A DNA stretch of 64,000 nt from a virus. The stretch lies in IMG/VR virus record IMGVR_UViG_3300019360_000001. One strand, 5' to 3'. Below are positions 8,648 through 59,602 of the stretch, one piece after another. The position numbers were made by a program, and so were the translations under genes. Under the pieces are notes generated by a model. It worked only from the letters and a program-made list of their open reading frames with translations, ran no database searches and was not told the DNA's origin. Position 1 is the first letter of the stretch, and the number at the start of each line of letters is the position of its first letter.

Positions 8648-10401
8648 TTGTTAGAAGTATTACAGATAATAGTAAATTCCCCTCCATTTAGTTTTCCTAA
8701 GTCAGATGACATGTCTCGGAGTTGATCTTTGGTTTGATAATGTCTTCCATGTCCATATCCGTAACTTAGATTAACTGGATCAGCAAAATAGATCGTATAG
8801 CATTTTTTATTAGTTTTATTAAATTCTTCAATCGCCGGAGGCGATATAGATGATAGTCCATCTGTGAACACAATAATAATATCTACTTCGTCTTCATTTA
8901 TTCTATTTATTGCATGCCTAACTATAATTTCAAAAGAAGTTCCATATCCGCCACGAACTTCTCCCTTCATAAACTTTTCCCAGTCTTCTATACCTTTTAC
9001 TTTTTCTGAGAAACAATATTTCCCATGGTAATTTCCCCCTGTAATTTCACATTCATCACAGTTATGAAAGAAATTTGCTATGTCTACCATATAAGGGATA
9101 AAAGCATGCATAGAAGGAGATGTATCAAAATAACAACAAATCTTTTTCTTATTTCCTTTTCTTTCTTCATTAAAATATAATGGGATTTGATCAGGTCCAC
9201 AAATATCTAGTACTATTAATTCAAACCCAGTTCTAGTTAAGTCTTTTGGAATAATATCTATGGTAGTTGATGTTTTAATTTCGGCATAAATAGTATCAAT
9301 GGCACTTTCTATTAACTTTTCTGTTTGCCATTTAGATATAAACTCATTTAACCCTTGATCTTCTGCACTCGCCGGAGTAAAAATATATTTGTCAAATATT
9401 GCATTTGGATTATTATAATTACTAAATCCATCTCCTTTTATTATTTTGGCACCATCAACTTCTTCTTTTATTGTTTTTTTATCGTTAGCTCTTACACCAT
9501 TCATTCCTCCACGAAATAGGACATCGTCTATTTCATCGTCTTTCATTCTTTCAAATGGAGTAGATGTATTTGCATCGTTTGTGTCATGGCTATCATCCTC
9601 ATCTTTTTCTGTTGGTTTATTTTCTTCTTTAGATTGATTTTTCCCATCTTCTGATTCTTGAGAACCAGTATAGTTTGTTTTTTCTTTGCCATCTGATCTA
9701 TACCCATCTTTTATCCACTCATACATTTCTTCTATTTTCTTTTTGTCTTCTGGATTTAGCAACGAAGACATTTTATTATATAGTAATAGCGGATCTGGTA
9801 TGTATGCATTAAATTCACTTGGATTTTTAGCCTCTGCACAAGTCGTATTTACTCGTGTTCTTACATAGTTTCCGTTCTCTGTTCGGGTTACCTTTTCGAC
9901 TTGTGTTAGGTATATTTCATCAAATATTTTTTGCACCCTATTAGGCAACTCATTTCTCTCTCTCATTAAAATAGATGGATTCATTACACAATAAAGCCCT
10001 TTTGTTCTTGATTCTTCTGTTGGAAACAAGAAATTGCCAAGCTTTATCATACCTCTTGGATTACATAAAAACAAAATTTTATTAATTGCGGCATCTAATG
10101 CAAAATTTATTAGTGCCTTATTAGTCGCTCCTCTAATATTCCTGTACATCGCTTTGTGCAACATTTCATGCCGCAAAACTAGTACAAGTAAATTTACAGG
10201 CAAAGACTGTAATATATTTGCAGAAAATAGAATTTTTTCTCGCTTAGAAACTGGATCAAAGATCCAACAAGCCGTTTGGCATCCATCTGGCATTCTATCA
10301 GAATAATCAACAATGGAACTATAAGTAACCCAGTTTAAGCCAGATTTAACTATTACTCTGGTTAGTTTATTTCGTAGTTTTCTTTCATTAGATGTTAACA
10401 T
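8644..10401 (-). CDS. HExxH metallopeptidase-like plus VWA domain protein (MoxR partner)
   Basis: RHEMLHK; acidic linker; MIDAS DTSPSM, GGYGTSF, FTDG. Confidence 0.8.
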   Translation of the reverse strand: MLTSNERKLRNKLTRVIVKSGLNWVTYSSIVDYSDRMPDGCQTACWIFDPVSKREKILFSANILQSLPVNLLVLVLRHEMLHKAMYRNIRGATNKALINFALDAAINKILFLCNPRGMIKLGNFLFPTEESRTKGLYCVMNPSILMRERNELPNRVQKIFDEIYLTQVEKVTRTENGNYVRTRVNTTCAEAKNPSEFNAYIPDPLLLYNKMSSLLNPEDKKKIEEMYEWIKDGYRSDGKEKTNYTGSQESEDGKNQSKEENKPTEKDEDDSHDTNDANTSTPFERMKDDEIDDVLFRGGMNGVRANDKKTIKEEVDGAKIIKGDGFSNYNNPNAIFDKYIFTPASAEDQGLNEFISKWQTEKLIESAIDTIYAEIKTSTTIDIIPKDLTRTGFELIVLDICGPDQIPLYFNEERKGNKKKICCYFDTSPSMHAFIPYMVDIANFFHNCDECEITGGNYHGKYCFSEKVKGIEDWEKFMKGEVRGGYGTSFEIIVRHAINRINEDEVDIIIVFTDGLSSISPPAIEEFNKTNKKCYTIYFADPVNLSYGYGHGRHYQTKDQLRDMSSDLGKLNGGEFTIICNTSNK

Positions 10402-10410
10402 GTAAATTCC

Positions 10411-11679
10411 TTAAAAAGATAGTGGGGCCAAATTGGCCTCTTCGTTTTTAGCGTATTCAAATAGCCGCAATTTTGCGGCATATTCTGCTTGGCGGCACAA
10501 ATCAGCACTCTTAATAGCCTTATGCAATTCGACTAAATCCTTTACTTCTTCTTCTTTTTCATCGTTTATTTCATTGATGATGTTACCTAACATATTAACT
10601 CGATCTGCATAGTCAAATCGTTCTTTAATAGGTTTTAGATACTTAGAAACAGATTTAATACGATCACCAACAGATCCTGTATTTACCGAAATACTAATTC
10701 GTGCCATAAGAGAATCTCCGTCTATTAAGAGGTCCTTAAGTGTTTCAAATAATGGCCTAGTTTTATCTGAGTTAAATCCAAGTTTGGATGCAATAGAATA
10801 TTGAATCGCATCCCATGCTCCGCTTTCAAGATATTCTGTATCTTGCATTACATGTTTATAATAAGCTGCCACAGAAACAAGCAGCGGAACAAACTGGTTG
10901 CTAATTTGCCTAAAAGATATTTCTATCTTATTAGATCCGGCAGTCTTATTAAATTCTTTCACGTTAGCTAGCAACGTAGAAAAGAATTTTGCCGTAAAAT
11001 CATTAATATTTGTCATTAATTTTTTATTGTTCCATATTTCATCGTATGTTTCTCTGACCTTATTTACCGTATCAAAAAGTTTTGTATTGTTTTCTGCAAT
11101 GTTTTCGTCCCTTTTCCCCTGATTTAATTCAATCATCTTGGAAATTTCCTCAACCCCAACAATATTACTTTTGTTATGAGTAGAGGGAACAGGAATTACC
11201 GCAAAAAATCTGTCAAGAAGTGCGGCATCAAGTTTATAGGCTCCCTTATACGTTTCTTCGTTCGCAGTTGCGATCACGAATTTATACTTTAAGGGAATTC
11301 CAAAAACTGTTCTCTCCTCAAGAATTTCTAAAACCATATTCCCTGTTTCTCTAGGGGCTCTAGTAATTTCGTCCATCATTATTACATCTGCATTGCACAC
11401 GCTTCTTTCATGTGTTGCATAAGTAATTTTGCCCTTTTTAATGTCTTCTGGATTAGGACATCCTACCATCGAGAGAAGATTTTCCTTGGACATTTCATAT
11501 TTAATGAACCTATAATTCGGATCATTGCCAGAAAGTGCGGCTGACACAAATCTCGCTACCGAACTTTTGCCACATCCGTGTGACCCAAGTAATAGGAAAT
11601 TATTTCCTCTGGCAAGACATGCTATGATAATAGGCTCTAGATTATGCCATCCATAAATATAATTGTTAAGGTGACTCAT
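10411..11679 (-). CDS. MoxR-family AAA+ ATPase
   Basis: Walker A GSHGCGKS, Walker B MMDEITR, ATAN, LDAALLDRF. Confidence 0.85.
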   Translation of the reverse strand: MSHLNNYIYGWHNLEPIIIACLARGNNFLLLGSHGCGKSSVARFVSAALSGNDPNYRFIKYEMSKENLLSMVGCPNPEDIKKGKITYATHERSVCNADVIMMDEITRAPRETGNMVLEILEERTVFGIPLKYKFVIATANEETYKGAYKLDAALLDRFFAVIPVPSTHNKSNIVGVEEISKMIELNQGKRDENIAENNTKLFDTVNKVRETYDEIWNNKKLMTNINDFTAKFFSTLLANVKEFNKTAGSNKIEISFRQISNQFVPLLVSVAAYYKHVMQDTEYLESGAWDAIQYSIASKLGFNSDKTRPLFETLKDLLIDGDSLMARISISVNTGSVGDRIKSVSKYLKPIKERFDYADRVNMLGNIINEINDEKEEEVKDLVELHKAIKSADLCRQAEYAAKLRLFEYAKNEEANLAPLSF

Positions 11680-12767
11680 GCTTGCTCCTTTTTGGTATTA
11701 TTATTAAAAGTTAACGAATTAATAACATTATCTATTAAATCACCGTCGAATGCGGAAATAGCAATGGGAGACGTTTCTAGAACTGTATACATCATTTGTG
11801 CAATATCATCTGTTGTATTTTCCACTATACTGGCAAATATTTCAGTGGAAGTTGGATCTTTGGAATAGGTTGATATTATCTTCATGTTTGCCGCATGGGT
11901 CAATATCCAGTCCATCGGCATCATATCTAATCCGCTAGAAATATTTCTATTAATAGCAGTGATTTTTAGATGGTATGCTTTATTTATTTTTTCTTTAGTG
12001 TCGGCATATTTGATAGCCAATGTCTTCAAACATTCAGACAAAGTTTCTACTTTCGTAGCATTTCTTTTCCTAGTCCCAAAAAACCTCATCATTCCTTCAA
12101 TTGTCAGTTGAGGAATTATTTTATAGCTAATTTGTTTCCTCAATTTAGAAGAATCAGTTTCAGAAATACCATGAACCTCATAATAAGGGAACATTCTGCC
12201 AGGAATATTCATCCTATTAATGATTTTGGTTTCATATTTTTCTATGCCTTCTATTGGCATAATAATCGTTTCTACGGGATTTGAGAATAGTAAGTTTGTT
12301 GTTTTTGTTGTGTTTTTTGATACGTCTTTGATATTTAATGCAAACTCTTCTCCAGAAATATCAAGCGTATAATCTTGTTTATTGTAAGTATATTTTGAAT
12401 CATTTTTTAAAAATGTAAATAATTCAGTAGTGTCTATGGCTTTGTCTTTATTTTTATATCTAGAAACAATAGAATTAAACTCATTAAGAGGATGTTCTTT
12501 TGACTTTACAGAAATCTCCTCTTCTATTTTTGTCAAATTATCTATAGTCAATATTTGACTATCTTTGACCAAGATGAACAATGGATGGTCTGGAAACTGT
12601 CGTAACCATGTAAACTTTGGAATATCAATATTAACAAAACGGGGAAGACTATCAGGATCTTTGCTTGGTAAGTTGCCCGATAAATCAGAAGATTTTATTT
12701 TTAGTATTTTAAAATCTTTCTCATTCATCAAAACATCGCCACGGACGTTCGACATCGTAAACAGCAT
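11676..12767 (-). CDS. hypothetical protein in MoxR/VWA operon
   Basis: 363-aa ORF, ATGA-coupled to MoxR. Confidence 0.7.
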   Translation of the reverse strand: MLFTMSNVRGDVLMNEKDFKILKIKSSDLSGNLPSKDPDSLPRFVNIDIPKFTWLRQFPDHPLFILVKDSQILTIDNLTKIEEEISVKSKEHPLNEFNSIVSRYKNKDKAIDTTELFTFLKNDSKYTYNKQDYTLDISGEEFALNIKDVSKNTTKTTNLLFSNPVETIIMPIEGIEKYETKIINRMNIPGRMFPYYEVHGISETDSSKLRKQISYKIIPQLTIEGMMRFFGTRKRNATKVETLSECLKTLAIKYADTKEKINKAYHLKITAINRNISSGLDMMPMDWILTHAANMKIISTYSKDPTSTEIFASIVENTTDDIAQMMYTVLETSPIAISAFDGDLIDNVINSLTFNNNTKKEQA

Positions 12768-13013
12768 TTAAATCTCCTTTATTAAATTAAACAAAACTCT
12801 TGTACCCACATTTTACACAAACGTAAACATTTTCTCTAGTTCTTTTTGAATAATAACAATGGGCGAAAGAATGTTTACAGTCTGTTGGGTTTAAAATAAC
12901 CCCTTTCTTTTCTCCTGCTTCCCTGTCCTTGCCCCTGTTTTTATTTTTATCTTTGGGCAAAAATTCTCCTTGTTTAAAAAGGTTTGGGATATGGTCTCGG
13001 ACGCCTAACCGGA

Positions 13014-13042
13014 ATTATACCATGGTGCGTCGATTCTGTCAA
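13014..13042 (-). promoter_or_regulatory. consensus sigma-70 promoter TTGACA-17-TATAAT
   Basis: TTGACAgaatcgacgcaccatggTATAAT upstream of the MoxR/VWA/tag-gene operon. Confidence 0.85.
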
Positions 13043-28018: not shown

Positions 28019-28369
28019 TTACAATGTGTAATAAATATCGTCCATTTGTGAAATTCTTTCGGCAGCTCTTTTAAGAATGCAAACTCTATCAGAAGCAGAT
28101 GATCCTTTGGGCCAATTATGTACATTACCAAGTTGAAATTGGCCATATTTAATAGGACATGTAATTTCTGCCCATCCATCCCAAATATTTAATGGAATAT
28201 TATTAAAATTTTGGTCAATCTTATACTTATCCCTTATTAATTTTCTAGGCATTTTAATTATTCTTGCAACTTTAGCTAATCCTCCCATTTGCTCAATGAA
28301 AGAATCATCCTTTGCATTAAAATTTTCGTTCATATAGAATTTTATTGAGGATTTCATGAACTTGCTCAA
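28019..28369 (-). CDS. hypothetical protein, GIYY-tag family (ends DDIYYTL)
   Basis: IPLNIWD...VCILKRAA body plus tag. Confidence 0.7.
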   Translation of the reverse strand: MSKFMKSSIKFYMNENFNAKDDSFIEQMGGLAKVARIIKMPRKLIRDKYKIDQNFNNIPLNIWDGWAEITCPIKYGQFQLGNVHNWPKGSSASDRVCILKRAAERISQMDDIYYTL

Positions 28370-28592
28370 ATGTCACAATTTATTATACATCTTCTGTTAT
28401 TGCTATTTCCTGGTTATCTTGTAGAATGTTAGCTTTGCGCAACATATCATCAATCTCCATTACCATTTCGATGGAATCTGATTTCACTTTGATTTGGTCA
28501 ACGATTTCGTTATTCACTATTAGCGAAATGTATTTCATTTTTTCCTCCATTTAATATTTTACTTGGTTTCCCAATTTCCGTTAATATCTTGT

Positions 28593-29063
28593 TCAGTCAA
28601 AAAGATCAAAAAAACAAGTGTAAATGGAATCTAAAACCCAAAGATAATCCTTATGATGAATTCCTGTAAGTCTTTCCCTAAAAACAACATAATGTGCAAG
28701 TTCATGAAGTAAAACTCTAAGGTTAATATGATTGCACTGAATAACAATATTCTTACCAGCGCAATAACCTGAAACTAATCCACCAACATTAATATACTGA
28801 TAAAGATGTGGATTTCTCTTGACTCCCAAAGATGAACAAATACGATTGCAAATTAGCTTAGCTTCTGTCAAATCCTTGGGATATATATGTTTGGAAAGTC
28901 TATTAGAATGCTTTGCTTCAATCTTTCTACATTCCCCATATTCTTTTTCGTTTTCATCCTTGTACTTTTTCAAGGCAACATAATCCCAAATAGGAGGAAG
29001 CTTTACAATAGGTTTAGGAATTACTTTGAATTCAAAATTCCTAGTTTTCTTGTAAGTTTTCAT
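28593..29063 (-). CDS. HExxH zincin-like (SprT-like) protein
   Basis: LLHELAHY...HH; start MKTYKK downstream of promoter. Confidence 0.6.
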   Translation of the reverse strand: MKTYKKTRNFEFKVIPKPIVKLPPIWDYVALKKYKDENEKEYGECRKIEAKHSNRLSKHIYPKDLTEAKLICNRICSSLGVKRNPHLYQYINVGGLVSGYCAGKNIVIQCNHINLRVLLHELAHYVVFRERLTGIHHKDYLWVLDSIYTCFFDLFD

Positions 29064-29104
29064 CGGATACAATTTCCGGCCCAACTCAAATTCTGATTCC
29101 GGAC

Positions 29105-29133
29105 AGTATACCATGCGCCTTCGATTCTGTCAA
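29105..29133 (-). promoter_or_regulatory. sigma-70 promoter TTGACA-17-TATACT
   Basis: TTGACAgaatcgaaggcgcatggTATACT, near-copy of the 13014..13042 promoter. Confidence 0.82.
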
Positions 29134-30031
29134 GTTTACACAAGTGCTTAAGGCGCCTAGACTTGCGATAATAAAGTTAAACCCAATAAATAAATATGTT
29201 TTTGCGTTTTCTCCTAGCAGAATCACCATTCCAGAAGTTAATAAGTTCATAAATTTTCTTGGCATCGGCAAGATAAACCGTTTTCTTGCCTCTATGTTGA
29301 GTATTCCCATAATATTTCCAGTTATAAACTACTGGAACAAAGTGTTTTGGCCTAATAAGTTCATCTTCAAAGTAATATTCAAACGGTGCATACATAATTT
29401 AAGTTTCACTCCATAACAATTTGGGCCAAATTTCCGTGTTTATCCTTCTTCATAAGAAGGATCTGACCAAATATAATTTTCCATCGGAGTTTCGATGAAA
29501 AACTCATTGCCAAAACTCCAAGTAAATTCACCAAACAACTCAAATACTTCGTTCATTTCCAATTTTCTTTATTAAATTCCCTCGGCACGTTTTTTTCGGC
29601 CGACTCTAATGAATTTTTGCCCCTATATTCCATTTCTTTTTGTTTTATAAGTCTAGCAATTGTTTGACAGGCCTAACATTTGATTTGTTTGCTAAACCCA
29701 ACGTTTGTTAGTTCGACCTAGCAATTGTTTGTTGTGACTAGTGGCTAAAAATTAGCTATTTTTCACTGTCATTTTGGCATATTCCATTCAAAGCGAATGC
29801 TGCCCATTAGGGCGCCTTTGGTCTAGTTTGCTCACGATAGACCATTCTGCCGTTCAGCTCGCAGCTCGGAGACAGATAGGCGCCTTCCTTTGGCATTCTC
29901 TTGCGAGTTCACATGGCGAAATGGCCATGGGCAGTAGGCATGGCCATGGTGTACGTAGTAGGGGGAAGCAATGTCAAAATTTGATTTTTCCATTTATTGG
30001 AAACCTGTACAAAAATTTGACATCGAATGGC

Positions 30032-30075
30032 AAAAAAAATAGAAGAGAATTCCAGGAATACCGAATTCTCCTCTA
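30032..30075 (-). terminator. intrinsic terminator
   Basis: TAGAGGAGAATTC...GAATTCTCTTCTA hairpin followed by a T run on the - strand. Confidence 0.65.
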
Positions 30076-30361
30076 ACCATCGAAAAAATAAGGCCTAATA
30101 GCCTAGGCCGTTTGTGTTGGGTTAAAAATGCGCCCGAAAATCTTTATGGATTTCCGGTTCTTGTTGGCACAAGCATGCGATTTGTTAGGGCTTGCCTTGC
30201 CCCTTTTTGTCCGCAACGTAGGCGCAAATCGTGAAAAGGGCTGAAGATACAAAAACTTATGGGTTAATATGTATTGGCCTCTTCAGTATCCGCTTCACGG
30301 ATAAACAAAGGGACGGTATACCGTCCCAGTGTTTCGGCCTGTCTTCTGTAATTTTATAGTC

Positions 30362-30661
30362 TTACGAAATTCGGGCCAACATCTCCTCAAGTTGCTTGAC
30401 CTTGGCGATTTGCTTCTCCAGTCGGGCCCGGAGCTGTTCGGGGTTTTCGGATGCCGTTCCTTCGCCTTCGTATTCTCCGCTGGCGTCCAATTCGGCCTTT
30501 CGAGTCTGCAGATATTCGAGCCGCTCTTGCCATTCGAGTAGCATGCGCTCGTTGCTGGCGATCCGGTCTTGCGCTTCCCGAATGTGCGCAATCAATGCAC
30601 TCCGGGAAAATCGCCGACCTCGCCTAGCGATGGTTTCGATTTTTTCCGTGACTACTGACAT
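30362..30661 (-). CDS. coiled-coil hypothetical protein (GC-richer island)
   Basis: AAAGGA SD before MSVVTEK; heptad pattern. Confidence 0.7.
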   Translation of the reverse strand: MSVVTEKIETIARRGRRFSRSALIAHIREAQDRIASNERMLLEWQERLEYLQTRKAELDASGEYEGEGTASENPEQLRARLEKQIAKVKQLEEMLARIS

Positions 30662-30719
30662 GTGGATCCTTTCTGGGCTTTTCGCCCTAAGTTGTTTATT
30701 TTCCTTCAAAAAGGGTTAA

Positions 30720-30734
30720 GCATGTGCAATGCCA
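30720..30734 (-). promoter_or_regulatory. sigma-54-like -24/-12 promoter
   Basis: TGGCATTGCACATGC (GG-N10-GC); palindrome at 30751-30775 upstream. Confidence 0.6.
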
Positions 30735-31594
30735 ATACCAAAATTTTCGTTAAGTGTAAGCCCTATAAGGACTTAGAACGTTATAGAGTTCTCATGAGAT
30801 GTCCAAATGCCTACTTTTTGTCATGGTTGAGTACACCTAGCAAATGCTAGACCTAGCAAACTTCTTCATGTACATATTTGGGACTATACATAAAAGGTTT
30901 CAACTTAAAAGCTTATGTAAACCTATTTAAGGTGATTCCTAAATAGTTCATCCATCAATACATATAACAAACCAATATAAATGGTAATAGAAGCACAAGA
31001 TACAAGATGATGGATGTGATTTATGGTAAGATGTTGTAAATAAAGGACTTATGACTTTCACCCTTTTCGCCATTTTTTTGTCATAAACCCTTACCACATA
31101 AGCACTTATGACGTTTTGATTTAACCTTTTGGGCTGGTTAATTCACGTTCAAAACTAGGCAAAAAAGTAATGGAATGGAGTATTTTCGTTACGATCTATT
31201 ATATTGTGGGTATATTTTACATTAAATAGTAAAAAAGATGTGCAATGATGGGTGAATCCGCATCGATTTTCGAGAACTGGCCTAAAACTTGCAAGGATGA
31301 AAAATCGTGCCAGACCATTTTTGCTTCGTAAACCCTTACTACATCAAGACTTACAGCTTAACATTTCCGCAATCTGCCGTTATTAACTTTTGGAAAAAGC
31401 ATGGGCATTCTCCCGCCTCGAAGGCCCATCAAAGGCTCAATTTAATTTATCATGGCCGAAAAATATGTCAAGTCAAAAAAATTTGTAAAAACTTTGGGCA
31501 AATAATAGAGTAACATTGTAAAATGTTACATTTTGCAATGTTAAATCTACAAAAAGTTTAGGGCCGGCGATAAGCCGGCCCTTTGTCGAACATG

Positions 31595-31816
31595 CTAACC
31601 CAGATTGATTCTGCCCACAATTTCCTTGGCAAGAATCCCATAGAACCTCTCCGAGGTTTTCCATTCTGTGCAGGGCACATGAGGAAACATCTTTTTAATC
31701 GCTTCAAGCTCATGCCCATCGGCTTGAACTTCGAAAACTGTTTGCACTGGATGGTTTGCCTTTTCGCCGACATGCCATTCCGTGACATCTCCTTTGTTTG
31801 AGACAATATACATCAT
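31595..31816 (-). CDS. hypothetical protein (GC-richer island)
   Basis: AAAGG SD; shares a 26-nt leader with the 30362..30661 gene. Confidence 0.65.
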   Translation of the reverse strand: MMYIVSNKGDVTEWHVGEKANHPVQTVFEVQADGHELEAIKKMFPHVPCTEWKTSERFYGILAKEIVGRINLG

Positions 31817-32533
31817 TTTGGACCTTTCTGGGCTTTTCGCCCTAAGTTATGGTTGTGGCATTATTTAAAGCAACTAGAGGGTTAAACTTTTGCCGTAAGT
31901 CTAATCTCCGCATATCCTTCGGAAGCCTTTTCTTTGAAGGCTTTTAAGGCTTCCTTGAAACTTTCAAAATCTTCGACTGTTTCAAAGTCTTTTTGCTCAA
32001 ACTTACGGAAGGAAACCGAAAAACGAACAAAATCGTTGATGTCAAACATTTTTCCCCTTTCCTATAATACCGTTTGTCTTCAAGGTATCGACCCTGTCCA
32101 AGGTATCCTTGACTACGTTGTCGATTGAATTGGTCTTCTTTAGAAGAGTATACATGTCCAAATAAAGTTCAAGAATTTCGGTTTTTGTCAATTTTTTGAA
32201 CTGTCGCATAAATAAATCATACTGTGTCTCAAACATTATAGGACTCCTCTACTAGAAGACCTTTCGAGCCTACCCTGCCCGGACGGGGGGCGAAGATTCG
32301 CCACGGTGACAGGATCAACTGGGTTAACTTTCGCAATTCTTCCAGGTCTCCTTGAATCGACAGCTGGCCATTGATTTCCAGAGTGTACATTATTTCCTAA
32401 GTCCTTTCCGTACCTTAATTTGGAGTGCCTGAAACCGAACCTTCAGCTCTGCTATTCTCTTTTTGCTCTCCGAAACCTTAGCTATAAGCTCTTCGAAGTG
32501 CTTTTCCATTTTTCTCCCTTCGTTATTGATTAA

Positions 32534-32548
32534 GCATGAATCGTGCCG
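32534..32548 (-). promoter_or_regulatory. sigma-54-like -24/-12 promoter
   Basis: CGGCACGATTCATGC upstream of MEKHFEEL ORF. Confidence 0.6.
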
Positions 32549-32664
32549 TTCTCCTAAGTTCTTATTTTTCGTTGCCCCTAACCGTCTAACCAAGACTTAT
32601 GGCTCGAAAAACTGTCAGATGTCCTAACATCTTTCATGTATGAAAAACATACAGTTGATTGCCT

Positions 32665-32693
32665 AAAAAAAGGGAACCGTATTAGGTTCCCTT
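32665..32693 (-). terminator. intrinsic terminator
   Basis: AGGGAACC-TAATAC-GGTTCCCT hairpin plus T run after 32707 ORF. Confidence 0.75.
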
Positions 32694-32706
32694 GAAGTCA
32701 GATTTC

Positions 32707-33228
32707 TTACCTTCCGAATCTGGAAATCCGAGGAAAACAAGCTTCAACTTGTTTCGGCGAAAGGGGATACGTATATTTCCTGTCCTTTTTCGACTTTAGC
32801 CAACTTAAGACTTGTTCGCACAAGTTCTTGCGGAATTCGGAACGGAATTTTCGGACCTTCATCAGCTGGAAAACCGCTTCTTTTCTATCAAAGTCGAGAG
32901 TTCCCAACAGTTTGACGATTCTTCCAGCCTGAAATTTGCCGTGGTGAAGGAAGTCCACAATTCGCTTGCGGAAAATCTCGCTTTGAATCTTCTTAGCTTG
33001 TTTGTAGGCATGCCATTGAAACGCTTTGTAGGCCTCGGAGGTCTTGTCTATTTTGGGGGGTGAAACGTAATCAAAAGCATCTGTGCCTACTGGAATTGTC
33101 TCTGGCCACTGTAAGTTGAAATTCCATACGGTGATGGAATCTTCATAGATCGCCCAGTCGTTGTTCCATTTACGACAGAAGGCAACGATTCTGCCTTCAT
33201 TTGCCGTAAGTATGTCTTGCGCTTTCAT
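32707..33228 (-). CDS. hypothetical protein (GC-richer island)
   Basis: AAGGA SD; FRSEFRKNLCEQVLSWL...YPLSPKQ tail recurrent in large phages. Confidence 0.7.
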   Translation of the reverse strand: MKAQDILTANEGRIVAFCRKWNNDWAIYEDSITVWNFNLQWPETIPVGTDAFDYVSPPKIDKTSEAYKAFQWHAYKQAKKIQSEIFRKRIVDFLHHGKFQAGRIVKLLGTLDFDRKEAVFQLMKVRKFRSEFRKNLCEQVLSWLKSKKDRKYTYPLSPKQVEACFPRISRFGR

Positions 33229-33489
33229 TTGTGTTCCTTTCATTCGCAAAGACTTGTTTCAGTTGTTCTTACGTCAACAAAAAGGTTTCCTTTTCCGTAA
33301 ACCTTTTCCAGGATTTGGACTGCTTCAAGTGCTTCTCTCATTGTTCCGTAAGACAAGCAAAGGAATACCGATTCCACGTAACCTGTCTCATCTTCTTCGT
33401 TTAGGTAAACGTTATATCCTTCCATGGGTTTCCTTTATAGCCTAATGGGAATAAGGGGGAATGTTTACCATTCCCCCATTCAACCTTTG

Positions 33490-33645
33490 CTAGATCGACC
33501 AGTAAGGGGACCGCAAGGTGAGCGCACGAATACCGATGTAACCGGTTTCGATCGCCCACATCTCCCGGATGATGTTGTTGGGCGACTTGCTGACAGAAGC
33601 CCAGTATTTCGTCAACATCTTCAGGCGCTTGACGGCATTGACCAT
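33490..33645 (-). CDS. 51-aa hypothetical protein MVNAVKRLKM...
   Basis: Strong SD AAGGAG; first ORF after the 33752 promoter; not in ORF track. Confidence 0.6.
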   Translation of the reverse strand: MVNAVKRLKMLTKYWASVSKSPNNIIREMWAIETGYIGIRALTLRSPYWSI

Positions 33646-33751
33646 TTGCACTCCTTTATCCGAGAATCGCCTTAAGGTAAGTCAGAAGGTAAATCACCAT
33701 TACGATTGCTGGCGTTACCATTAGGATTTTGATTCTCATAATGATGGAATA

Positions 33752-33766
33752 GCATCTTCTATGCCA
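33752..33766 (-). promoter_or_regulatory. sigma-54-like -24/-12 promoter
   Basis: TGGCATAGAAGATGC; palindrome at 33772-33796. Confidence 0.65.
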
Positions 33767-34076
33767 AAAACTAAATCCTTATATTATAAAGACTTAGGTT
33801 TTAGAATAGGAAGGAAATGACAGTTTTAGGCGTCAAATTTTGTCTATTTTGCCATTTAATACCACATGGAAACGGTTTGAATGTCTTCCCGAAATCATTT
33901 TCTCTCTATATAAGTCGCCCTTCCACCAAACAAAGCATAAAGCGAGACAAACAAAAGGGTTAATGTTAAAGTCGGAACCGTAAAGGTAGTCTCGCCATTT
34001 GACACATCGTAAAAGGTCGGGAAAATGTGTCGAATCACGGGTTATATCCTTTTTTCTTCTTTCAATGGGATCATAC

Positions 34077-34091
34077 GCATCTTCTATGCCA
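34077..34091 (-). promoter_or_regulatory. sigma-54-like -24/-12 promoter
   Basis: TGGCATAGAAGATGC, identical to 33752 copy; palindrome at 34097-34121. Confidence 0.6.
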
Positions 34092-34312
34092 TCCTTTCTA
34101 CGCTTGAATCTAAAGGGTTTACGTTACTAGCCCTTCCCAAAACCAAGCGAAACGTCAAATGTCTGTACATCCCAGGTTTTCATAAGTCCTTATGGGATAA
34201 CGTTTCACATGGCAAAAATGGGATTTCGCCTATAGCAAAACACAAAATTCCATATAGGCAAAAATTACTTACGGATTTATTATACTTAGGACACATTCAA
34301 TTAGGCCTACTT

Positions 34313-34353
34313 GCATCTTTTATGCCACTTTATTACATGCAATATTTGTTCCA
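34313..34353 (-). promoter_or_regulatory. two tandem sigma-54-like -24/-12 motifs
   Basis: TGGCATAAAAGATGC (34313-34327) and TGGAACAAATATTGC (34339-34353). Confidence 0.55.
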
Positions 34354-34546
34354 TCCCATCATTTCCCTAACCTATTACCACATCAAACAATAAACTTACC
34401 ATAAAGAACCGTACCAAAGACACAAGCTTGTCTGAGATGCTAAGTTGTTATATTGAAAGGACTTAGGGGAGGGTTTTTGGAATTCGTGATTTGATTGATG
34501 CGAAAAACGCCGGGGGGACTCACACAAAACATACACCCCCTATCTT

Positions 34547-34640
34547 AGTATCGTACTAACATACCAGTATCATACTAACATGCTCATACTAATATGTCTT
34601 TATATTTTAGTATTAATTATTAGGGGAGTATCGTACTAAC
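34547..34640. repeat. direct repeats AGTATCRTACTAAC at strand-switch point
   Basis: Copies at 34547, 34566, 34627 and partial at about 34584. Confidence 0.8.
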
Positions 34641-34681
34641 TTTGCTGTAATAAGCATGTCCCTCTTATGGATAAGTAGAGT

Positions 34682-58838: not shown

Positions 58839-59602
58839 TTTTTGTTTGTGGGAGGGGTGTTTTTACGGATATTAATGTCGTTTATAAAATATCAAAAGAT
58901 TTATCCTGGAAATACATAAAACAATATATTGCGCCAAATACAATAGACATAGCGATATACAAAATATGCCTTGATTTATATATTACTAAAAAGACTATTT
59001 GGAATGTGCAATCTCGCTTATCTGAAAATGGTCTTTTGTGTCTTGAATGTTCTCCAGAAAATATTAGCCAAGCAATTGGTATAATCTCAGAATCTGGCTT
59101 TAAATATTCTATTTGCTATTTATTTGGGCAAAACGACACAATTATTTGGCTTTTAGCATCTAAAAAAGCAAACCCCAAATTGCCTAAGTACTTAATTTTA
59201 AATGACTTAGAGCAAAGATCTGACACAATTTTAAATTCGGGCCAATTTTCTTCGCAAGCCGTAGTACTTCTTGTGGGAGACTCTACACTTTCATTAGTTT
59301 CATCTTTGAAAAGCAAATATGTTTATATAATTGCATTTTGCGATGATGAAATATTAATAGAAATAGCAAAGTCAGAAGGTATTAGTGTTGTGACGCCTTG
59401 ACTTGCTTTGTTTGCCGAAAGTCAATAAAAGGGGAAAGCAGAAAAGAAGGCAATAAGATTGCCCATGCTAATTGTTTTTTGGCAAAATCGATAATTAAAA
59501 TAACTAAGATTGGTCCAGATTCCATAAGTTTTCTTCCTGGTTCAGGAATTAGCAAATCAAAGCAGAATGAAATAATATCTGATAATATACTTGGGGAAAT
59601 TA

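Follow-up and report, generated by a model that had tools for sequence, protein, structure and literature searches.

Candidate sigma-54-type promoters ahead of orphan micro-genes in a strand-switch island of an uncultured phage

Transcription of phage genomes is, in the textbook view, carried out with host sigma-70, with phage sigma factors or by phage RNA polymerases. The present analysis concerns six short promoter-like elements (hereafter referred to as cores P1 to P6, numbered from right to left) with the block arrangement of bacterial sigma-54 promoters, which are located in an island of about 4.5 kb in the IMG/VR record IMGVR_UViG_3300019360_000001. The 64,000-nt stretch analysed, hereafter the window, is a portion of an uncultured phage genome with a guanine-plus-cytosine (G+C) content of about 30%; a protein of the window was found on a contig of 152,264 bp, and the phage is about 152 kb in size. 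Genes of the window include intein-bearing ribonucleotide reductase and terminase genes, an RNA ligase, PhoH, a MoxR/vWA pair and TnpB. As far as about 30 kb the genes point to the left, and from 34.8 kb onward to the right; the island (30000-34500) lies at the strand switch between these two arms, with a G+C content of 41-42%, above that of the rest of the genome, and a non-coding share of about 50%. Copies of the island with 86-97% identity are found in IMG/VR record G001, which spans window positions 28294-32764, and in the metagenome contigs L127 and L128, which were used as the relatives for comparison; since the island is present in all four related genomes, an assembly artefact is ruled out.

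The minus strand of the island reads as three predicted transcription units (Table 1). Searches of the island and neighbouring genes against Pfam and PHROGs gave no match to a regulator or a helix-turn-helix (HTH) domain, the island proteins being all orphans; for the largest of these, the 173-amino-acid (aa) protein, the predicted fold was unusable (pLDDT 50) and the protein atlas gave nothing. Several of the open reading frames (ORFs) downstream of the cores show coding-type substitution among the relatives, with synonymous versus non-synonymous changes of 6 vs 1, 6 vs 3 and 10 vs 6. When transcription is assumed to start 12 nt past the GC of each core, the predicted leaders are 27 nt for P3, about 0 nt for P4, 13 nt for P5 and 47 nt for P6, and Shine-Dalgarno sites are kept wherever a leader exists. 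P6 is located past about 830 bp of non-coding DNA that follows the terminator at 31582-31560. The 27-aa hydrophobic ORF, which is conserved and has its ATG abutting the predicted start of P4, may represent a leaderless membrane micro-peptide.

The eight motifs listed in a first-pass annotation of this DNA, namely six leftward GG-N10-GC elements, a variant at 31298 and a rightward copy at 31278, were all recovered at the positions it had given. TGGCA-N7-TGC has five matches in the window against 1.17 expected, a count of at least five being reached in none of 100 shuffles; four of the strict matches lie in the island, every one of them intergenic and on the minus strand, which is the gene strand. 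As a calibration, four same-strand strict matches within 4.5 kb were observed in one of 117 other viral loci. A looser score, which requires GG-N10-GC and agreement with TGGCAC-N5-TTGCW at 9 or more of 11 positions, was reached seven times in the island and 10 times elsewhere in the window (59.5 kb). The seven all lie in the non-coding half of the island, for which 300 shuffles specific to the island predict 0.55. Since Gly-rich tail-fibre coding repeats of unrelated phages hold clusters of such matches too, the strict count alone is taken as evidence.

The distance from GG to GC is exactly 10 nt in all six cores, which have the general form TGGCA(T/C)-N5-(A/T)TGC(A/T). Of the 11 positions of TGGCAC-N5-TTGCW, the cores share 8-10: five of them have 9-10, and P3 has 8. 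The bases T-26, A-22, pyrimidine-21 and T-14 agree with the sigma-54 consensus, and TGGCA(T/C) falls in the normal range of predicted sigma-54 sites (PMC11704786). The variants at 31298 and 31058 lack the -12 GC of the invariant GG/GC pair and were left out of the core count; the former is probably a decayed copy of P5, and the rightward core that faces it could drive a rightward RNA of about 270 nt up to the two-way terminator.

Conservation among the three close relatives was examined by position. The eight defining TGGCA/TGC positions of the cores vary in one of 72 columns, while variation amounts to 4.8% in the spacer, 6-7% in the upstream DNA and 15% in the 30 nt downstream. P3 is the case that tells most: in L127 and L128 it reads TGGCATAAAACATGC, with two spacer changes, TGGCA/TGC intact and the next 25 nt replaced; in G001 and L128, a 165-bp non-coding insert that is missing from the window starts about 15 nt past the P6 core, before the leader. 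The promoter modules persist across the relatives despite differences in gene content. The micro-genes at 32042-32236 and 33490-33651 are missing from the relatives and an additional small gene follows the 173-aa gene in L127 and L128, the whole forming a mosaic of cargo behind stable promoter modules. Cores or dyads (described below) as sites of cassette recombination were considered and rejected, as the gene-content breaks of the relatives do not fall at them, with the exception of the insert about 15 nt past P6.

These observations bear on the reading that the cores are chance matches or functionless relics of local duplication. P3 and P4 are the same 15-mer and P2 differs from it by one base, and the higher G+C content of the island makes chance matches more frequent there; however, seven looser matches stand against the 0.55 predicted by island-specific shuffles, strand, intergenic placement and conservation all agree, and the copies have unrelated flanks, only the core having been kept in them. 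Such an origin is considered so improbable as to carry very little weight.

The cores behave in a promoter-like manner, in that they lie on the gene strand, in intergenic DNA, past terminators and 0-47 nt ahead of start codons (P3-P6), and are conserved while their flanks diverge. Sigma-70-family factors require 16-18 nt between their two blocks, and the promoters of single-subunit polymerases are conserved along their full length. Two short blocks separated by 5 nt, with GG and GC placed exactly 10 nt apart, represent sigma-54 geometry and match no sigma-70-family spacing. No consistent -35/-10 pair was found around the cores and sigma-70 matches of at least 11/12 are absent from the island. 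The leftward arm, in contrast, has TTGACA-17-TATAAT without a mismatch at 13042 and, at 29133, a match of 11/12; since a perfect match occurs in that arm and none of at least 11/12 in the island, the main sigma factor of the host appears to be ordinary and the island to be set apart from it. With slightly better than even confidence, we infer that the six TGGCA(T/C)-N5-(A/T)TGC elements are -24/-12 (sigma-54-type) promoters heading the three leftward units of orphan micro-genes. Sigma-54 transcription of the island, as proposed in the first-pass annotation, is partly supported, by strand, intergenic placement, start-codon distance, core conservation and block geometry; neither RpoN nor a GAFTGA activator is encoded in the 64 kb.

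The same compact signal might instead be read by a factor that the phage specifies, a sigma-like protein or an RNA polymerase of its own whose gene would lie in the remaining 88 kb or so; this is unlikely, if the least so of the alternatives considered. SPbeta-like and large clostridial phages carry their own RNA polymerase, and it is to these that the terminase is closest, at only 26-28%. The cores also have more in common than the sigma-54 minimum, TGGCATA[GA]AAGATGC being shared by three of them, and all but one carry ATGC instead of TTGC at -12. However, no phage polymerase or sigma-70-family factor is known to read two blocks with only 5 nt between them; changes in the spacer are tolerated by P3, unlike in the promoters of single-subunit polymerases, and GG and GC are kept in P1 and P5 despite their differing spacers.

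P1 and P5 bear also on a further alternative, in which the 15-mers would be GCAT-N5-ATGC operators of a dimeric phage regulator and transcription would come from weak sigma-70 promoters or from read-through. These two cores break the palindrome yet keep GG-N10-GC, and the symmetry ends at 4 bp, with a one-sided TGG that always points with the genes. The GCAT/ATGC arms are present in four of six cores, dimer-binding sites are a theme of the island, given its second family of dyads, and some sigma-70-like 10/12 matches occur there (e.g. 31471-31444), but no consistent -10/-35 pair lies beside the cores. An operator role is regarded as somewhat less probable again than a phage-specified factor.

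Several points weigh against the assignment to sigma-54. Position -15 is A, not T, in five of six cores, and GCAT-N5-ATGC is a short palindrome in itself. Several cores have spacer bases in common, and therefore part of their similarity reflects duplication and not independent selection; the power of the conservation comparison is low (about p = 0.03), because the relatives are very close (86-97% identity). Neither a GAFTGA loop nor an RpoN box was found in the six frames of the window. The only Sigma54_activat match is a MoxR-type ATPase (10411-11679, minus strand) at the threshold (19.7-20.3 bits, the lower value falling just short of the cut-off); it was treated as a cross-hit, in view of the threshold score, the absence of the GAFTGA loop and the matches that the same model gives in archaeal control genomes. 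Host searches assigned no host. Finally, P1 stands in tandem with P2, 26 bp upstream, and these two cores could not be occupied simultaneously, nor could the two overlapping cores at P6.

The last point is the starting ground for a third alternative, in which sigma-54 holoenzyme would bind to the cores and would for the most part be retained there, the sites acting as a sink or a roadblock and not driving the genes. Tandem, overlapping and facing cores (P1/P2, the P6 pair, 31278/31298) cannot all fire, and sigma-54 closed complexes are stable in the absence of an activator. Every unit needs a promoter, however, and no other candidate was seen, and the core-to-start-codon distances are sensible, so that only a slight chance is given to this role. 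Intragenic binding of sigma-54 has been reported (PMC4591121).

The searches for the host and for further relatives gave the following results. TnpB scans of genome contigs yielded 24-28% matches only, the GDP-mannose dehydratase was placed among mixed taxa in the protein atlas, and the BCS1-like ATPase had 30% matches to proteobacterial jumbo phages. More distant relatives were sought in the phages collection with no match; viral contigs searched with the 180-aa, phosphatase and GP88 proteins and with the leader returned only G001 or unrelated phages lacking arrays. A scan for the exact 15-mers found mostly unrelated contigs, with L066, the same contig as L127, as the sole relative, and a metagenome scan found two close relatives.

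The island also carries a family of dyads of the form TAAGTCCTT-N7-AAGGACTTA, with 10 copies in the window at no more than 4 of 18 mismatches, seven of which are in the island (Table 1); three copies are included in a 39-nt repeat that combines a dyad, an A-tract and TGG. One copy, TAAGTACTTAATTTTAAATGACTTA, with 2 of 18 mismatches, is located far from the island in the rightward arm (59185-59209). The first-pass annotation had described a 25-bp imperfect palindrome just upstream of most cores. The family itself is real, but when the 35 bp upstream of each core were searched for their best dyad and the result compared with random island positions, only P6 (gap 16) and P4 (gap 5) among the six cores exceeded the background, as did the GC-less variants at 31298 (gap 16) and 31058 (gap 11). 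The dyads claimed at P5, P3 and P1 have 7-10 mismatches, which is the usual best at random island positions, and no upstream dyad above background was found for P2 and P5. The supposed helical phasing, with gaps of 5-6 or 14-16 bp, is weakly founded, since three of its dyad calls stand at background level.

The palindromes had further been likened to sites for integration host factor (IHF). The Escherichia coli IHF consensus, WATCAANNNNTTR, has no match in 30000-34500 and six in the window against 13 expected; the label was thus rejected, the palindromes constituting a specific dyad family. Terminators were rejected likewise, as a U-run follows the dyad at 33772-33796 only. Most likely, the dyads are bound by a single specific regulator that acts as a dimer, be it the activator, a co-regulator or a repressor. 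The dyad pattern was at or below control in 401 Bacillota genomes. A bolder proposal is that a phage-encoded factor, bound at the dyads, fires the sigma-54 holoenzyme from beside the core (-44/-55), without a canonical GAFTGA-bearing enhancer-binding protein of the AAA+ ATPase class; the chance of this is judged slighter still than that of a sink.

Three of the dyads, the two GC-less variants, the rightward core and a sigma-70-like extended -10 (31471-31444, minus strand) fall in 780 bp with no convincing ORF (30780-31560); this stretch might contain an origin, a cluster of operators or the locus of a non-coding RNA. The segment 30692-32050, which encloses it, is the best conserved of the island, with 95.7% identity to G001 against 86-90% in the segments on either side. 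No Rfam family was found in the island at an E-value of 1 or better. A 35-nt repeat (89% identical) with an identical 26-nt leader occurs at 30659-30693 and 31814-31848, directly 5' of two unrelated genes; the leader contains a GGGC-GAAAA-GCCC hairpin, resembling a boxB-type antitermination hairpin, and is present in two copies in G001 too. At the right edge of the island, three AGTATCGTACTAAC-type repeats (34547-34649) stand beside G- and C-tracts at the composition junction.

Table 1. Predicted transcription units, terminators, cores and dyads of the island
Feature	Coordinates	Strand	Remarks
Unit 1 (P1-P4)	32707..34038	-	47 aa (33895-34038), 27 aa (33656-33739), 53 aa (33490-33651), 61 aa (33240-33425), 173 aa (32707-33228); all orphans
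Unit 2 (P5)	31595..32509	-	genes of 39, 53, 64, 55 and 73 aa; all orphans
Unit 3 (P6)	30362..30661	-	99-aa coiled-coil-like orphan gene
Intrinsic terminator	32670..32693	-	end of unit fed by P1-P4
GC-rich terminator, bidirectional	31560..31582	-	end of P5 operon
Core P1 TGGAACAAATATTGC	34339..34353	-	10/11 to sigma-54 consensus; one spacer change in L127, kept in L128
Core P2 TGGCATAAAAGATGC	34313..34327	-	unchanged in L127 and L128; the next 210 nt or so have no convincing ORF
Core P3 TGGCATAGAAGATGC	34077..34091	-	predicted start about 34065, 27 nt 5' of GTG of 47-aa gene (has Shine-Dalgarno site)
Core P4 TGGCATAGAAGATGC	33752..33766	-	predicted start about 33740 abuts ATG of 27-aa hydrophobic ORF
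Core P5 CGGCACGATTCATGC	32534..32548	-	downstream of terminator 32693-32670; predicted start 13 nt 5' of ATG at 32509
Core P6 TGGCATTGCACATGC	30720-30734	-	ahead of 47-nt leader and 99-aa gene
Extra core overlapping P6, 6 nt upstream	30726-30740	-	reads TGGCATTGGCATTGCA in relatives
Variant TGGCACGATTTTTCA lacking -12 GC	31298..31312	-	no gene downstream
Second GC-less variant TGGCGAAAAGGGTGA	31058..31072	-	part of 39-nt repeat (dyad, A-tract, TGG)
Rightward core TGGCCTAAAACTTGC	31278..31292	+	faces 31298 variant; conserved in G001 and L128
Dyad	30751..30775	.	4/18 mismatches; 16 bp upstream of P6
Dyad	31027..31051	.	3/18 mismatches; no adjoining core
Dyad	31084..31108	.	3/18 mismatches; 11 bp upstream of 31058 variant
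Dyad	31329..31353	.	4/18 mismatches; 16 bp upstream of 31298 variant
Dyad, best in island	33772..33796	.	2/18 mismatches; 5 bp upstream of P4; RNA form would be a hairpin, then U-run
Dyad	34183..34207	.	4/18 mismatches; 91 bp upstream of P3, centre near -130
Dyad	34441..34465	.	2/18 mismatches; 87 bp upstream of P1, centre near -126; right island edge
Insert near P6	L128 3470-3655; G001 (L002 3050-3225)

Comparison with known systems helps to place the island. Bacterial sigma-54 (RpoN) promoters such as glnAp2, pspA and Pu have the same 10-nt GG/GC geometry, match to the consensus and placement before genes, and the dyads some 126-130 bp upstream of two of the promoters are at the usual enhancer distance, upstream activator sequences being expected about 80-150 bp away; the present elements differ in belonging to a phage, in having mostly A at -15 and two core-adjacent dyads (centres -44 and -55), and in the absence of the IHF consensus. 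Some IHF sites of sigma-54 promoters lie between the upstream element and the core; that consensus is missing from the island, and A-tracts (AAAAATGG) are found just ahead of several cores, where they could bend the DNA. Lambda-type operator clusters resemble the dyad family, which likewise consists of imperfect 25-bp palindromes, grouped where genes are few and control elements many and in several cases beside promoters. Here, however, neither the island nor its neighbourhood yielded a repressor or HTH gene, and the dyads stand upstream of the cores with no overlap.

Sigma-54-driven phage transcription had been called unusual in the first-pass annotation, a statement to be tempered by Pseudomonas phage YuA, for which, according to the passage of PMC10914365 that cites Ceyssens et al. 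2008, use of sigma-70 as well as of sigma-54 has been reported, with one sigma-54-like promoter confirmed by start-site mapping. As described in that passage, YuA likewise has a phage promoter assigned to host sigma-54, a single one supported experimentally by start-site and promoter-trap data, whereas the present phage has an array of six, predicted from sequence, in one island. In a full-text literature search, no phage regulon based on sigma-54 promoters was found to have been described. The phage AAA+ protein Htm resembles enhancer-binding proteins and lacks GAFTGA; its action on sigma-54 polymerase has been proposed, not shown (bioRxiv 10.64898/2026.10.06.757011). An unrelated viral contig of 48% G+C (IMGVR_UViG_3300047457_000281, 10251-12991) contains four same-strand TGGCA-N7-TGC elements within 4.5 kb, including TGGCATAGAAGATGC, and may be another such array.

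If the cores are sigma-54-type promoters, host RNA polymerase carrying sigma-54 would dock at each of them as a closed complex and would fire only once an ATP-driven activator is active, either one of the host or one that the phage encodes outside the 64 kb. P1-P4 would then feed the genes at 34038-32707, P5 those at 32509-31595 and P6 that at 30661-30362, and the putative regulator bound at the dyads would act from an enhancer-like distance on two promoters (about -126 and -130) and from beside the core on two (about -44 and -55). The island would in this way have a switch of its own, dependent on conditions and distinct from the arms with their sigma-70-type promoters.

The value of the finding is limited by the precedent of the single YuA promoter and by its basis in sequence. 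A whole accessory or early island wired to sigma-54 would make its expression dependent on a signalling ATPase of the host and would tie the phage programme to the physiological state of the host, such as stress, nutrients or motility. A phage factor acting beside the core would, if real, represent a new mode of sigma-54 activation, by which a phage taps an otherwise idle pool of host polymerase. The promoters, dyads, terminators and orphan micro-proteins of the island together constitute a compact and testable candidate regulon.

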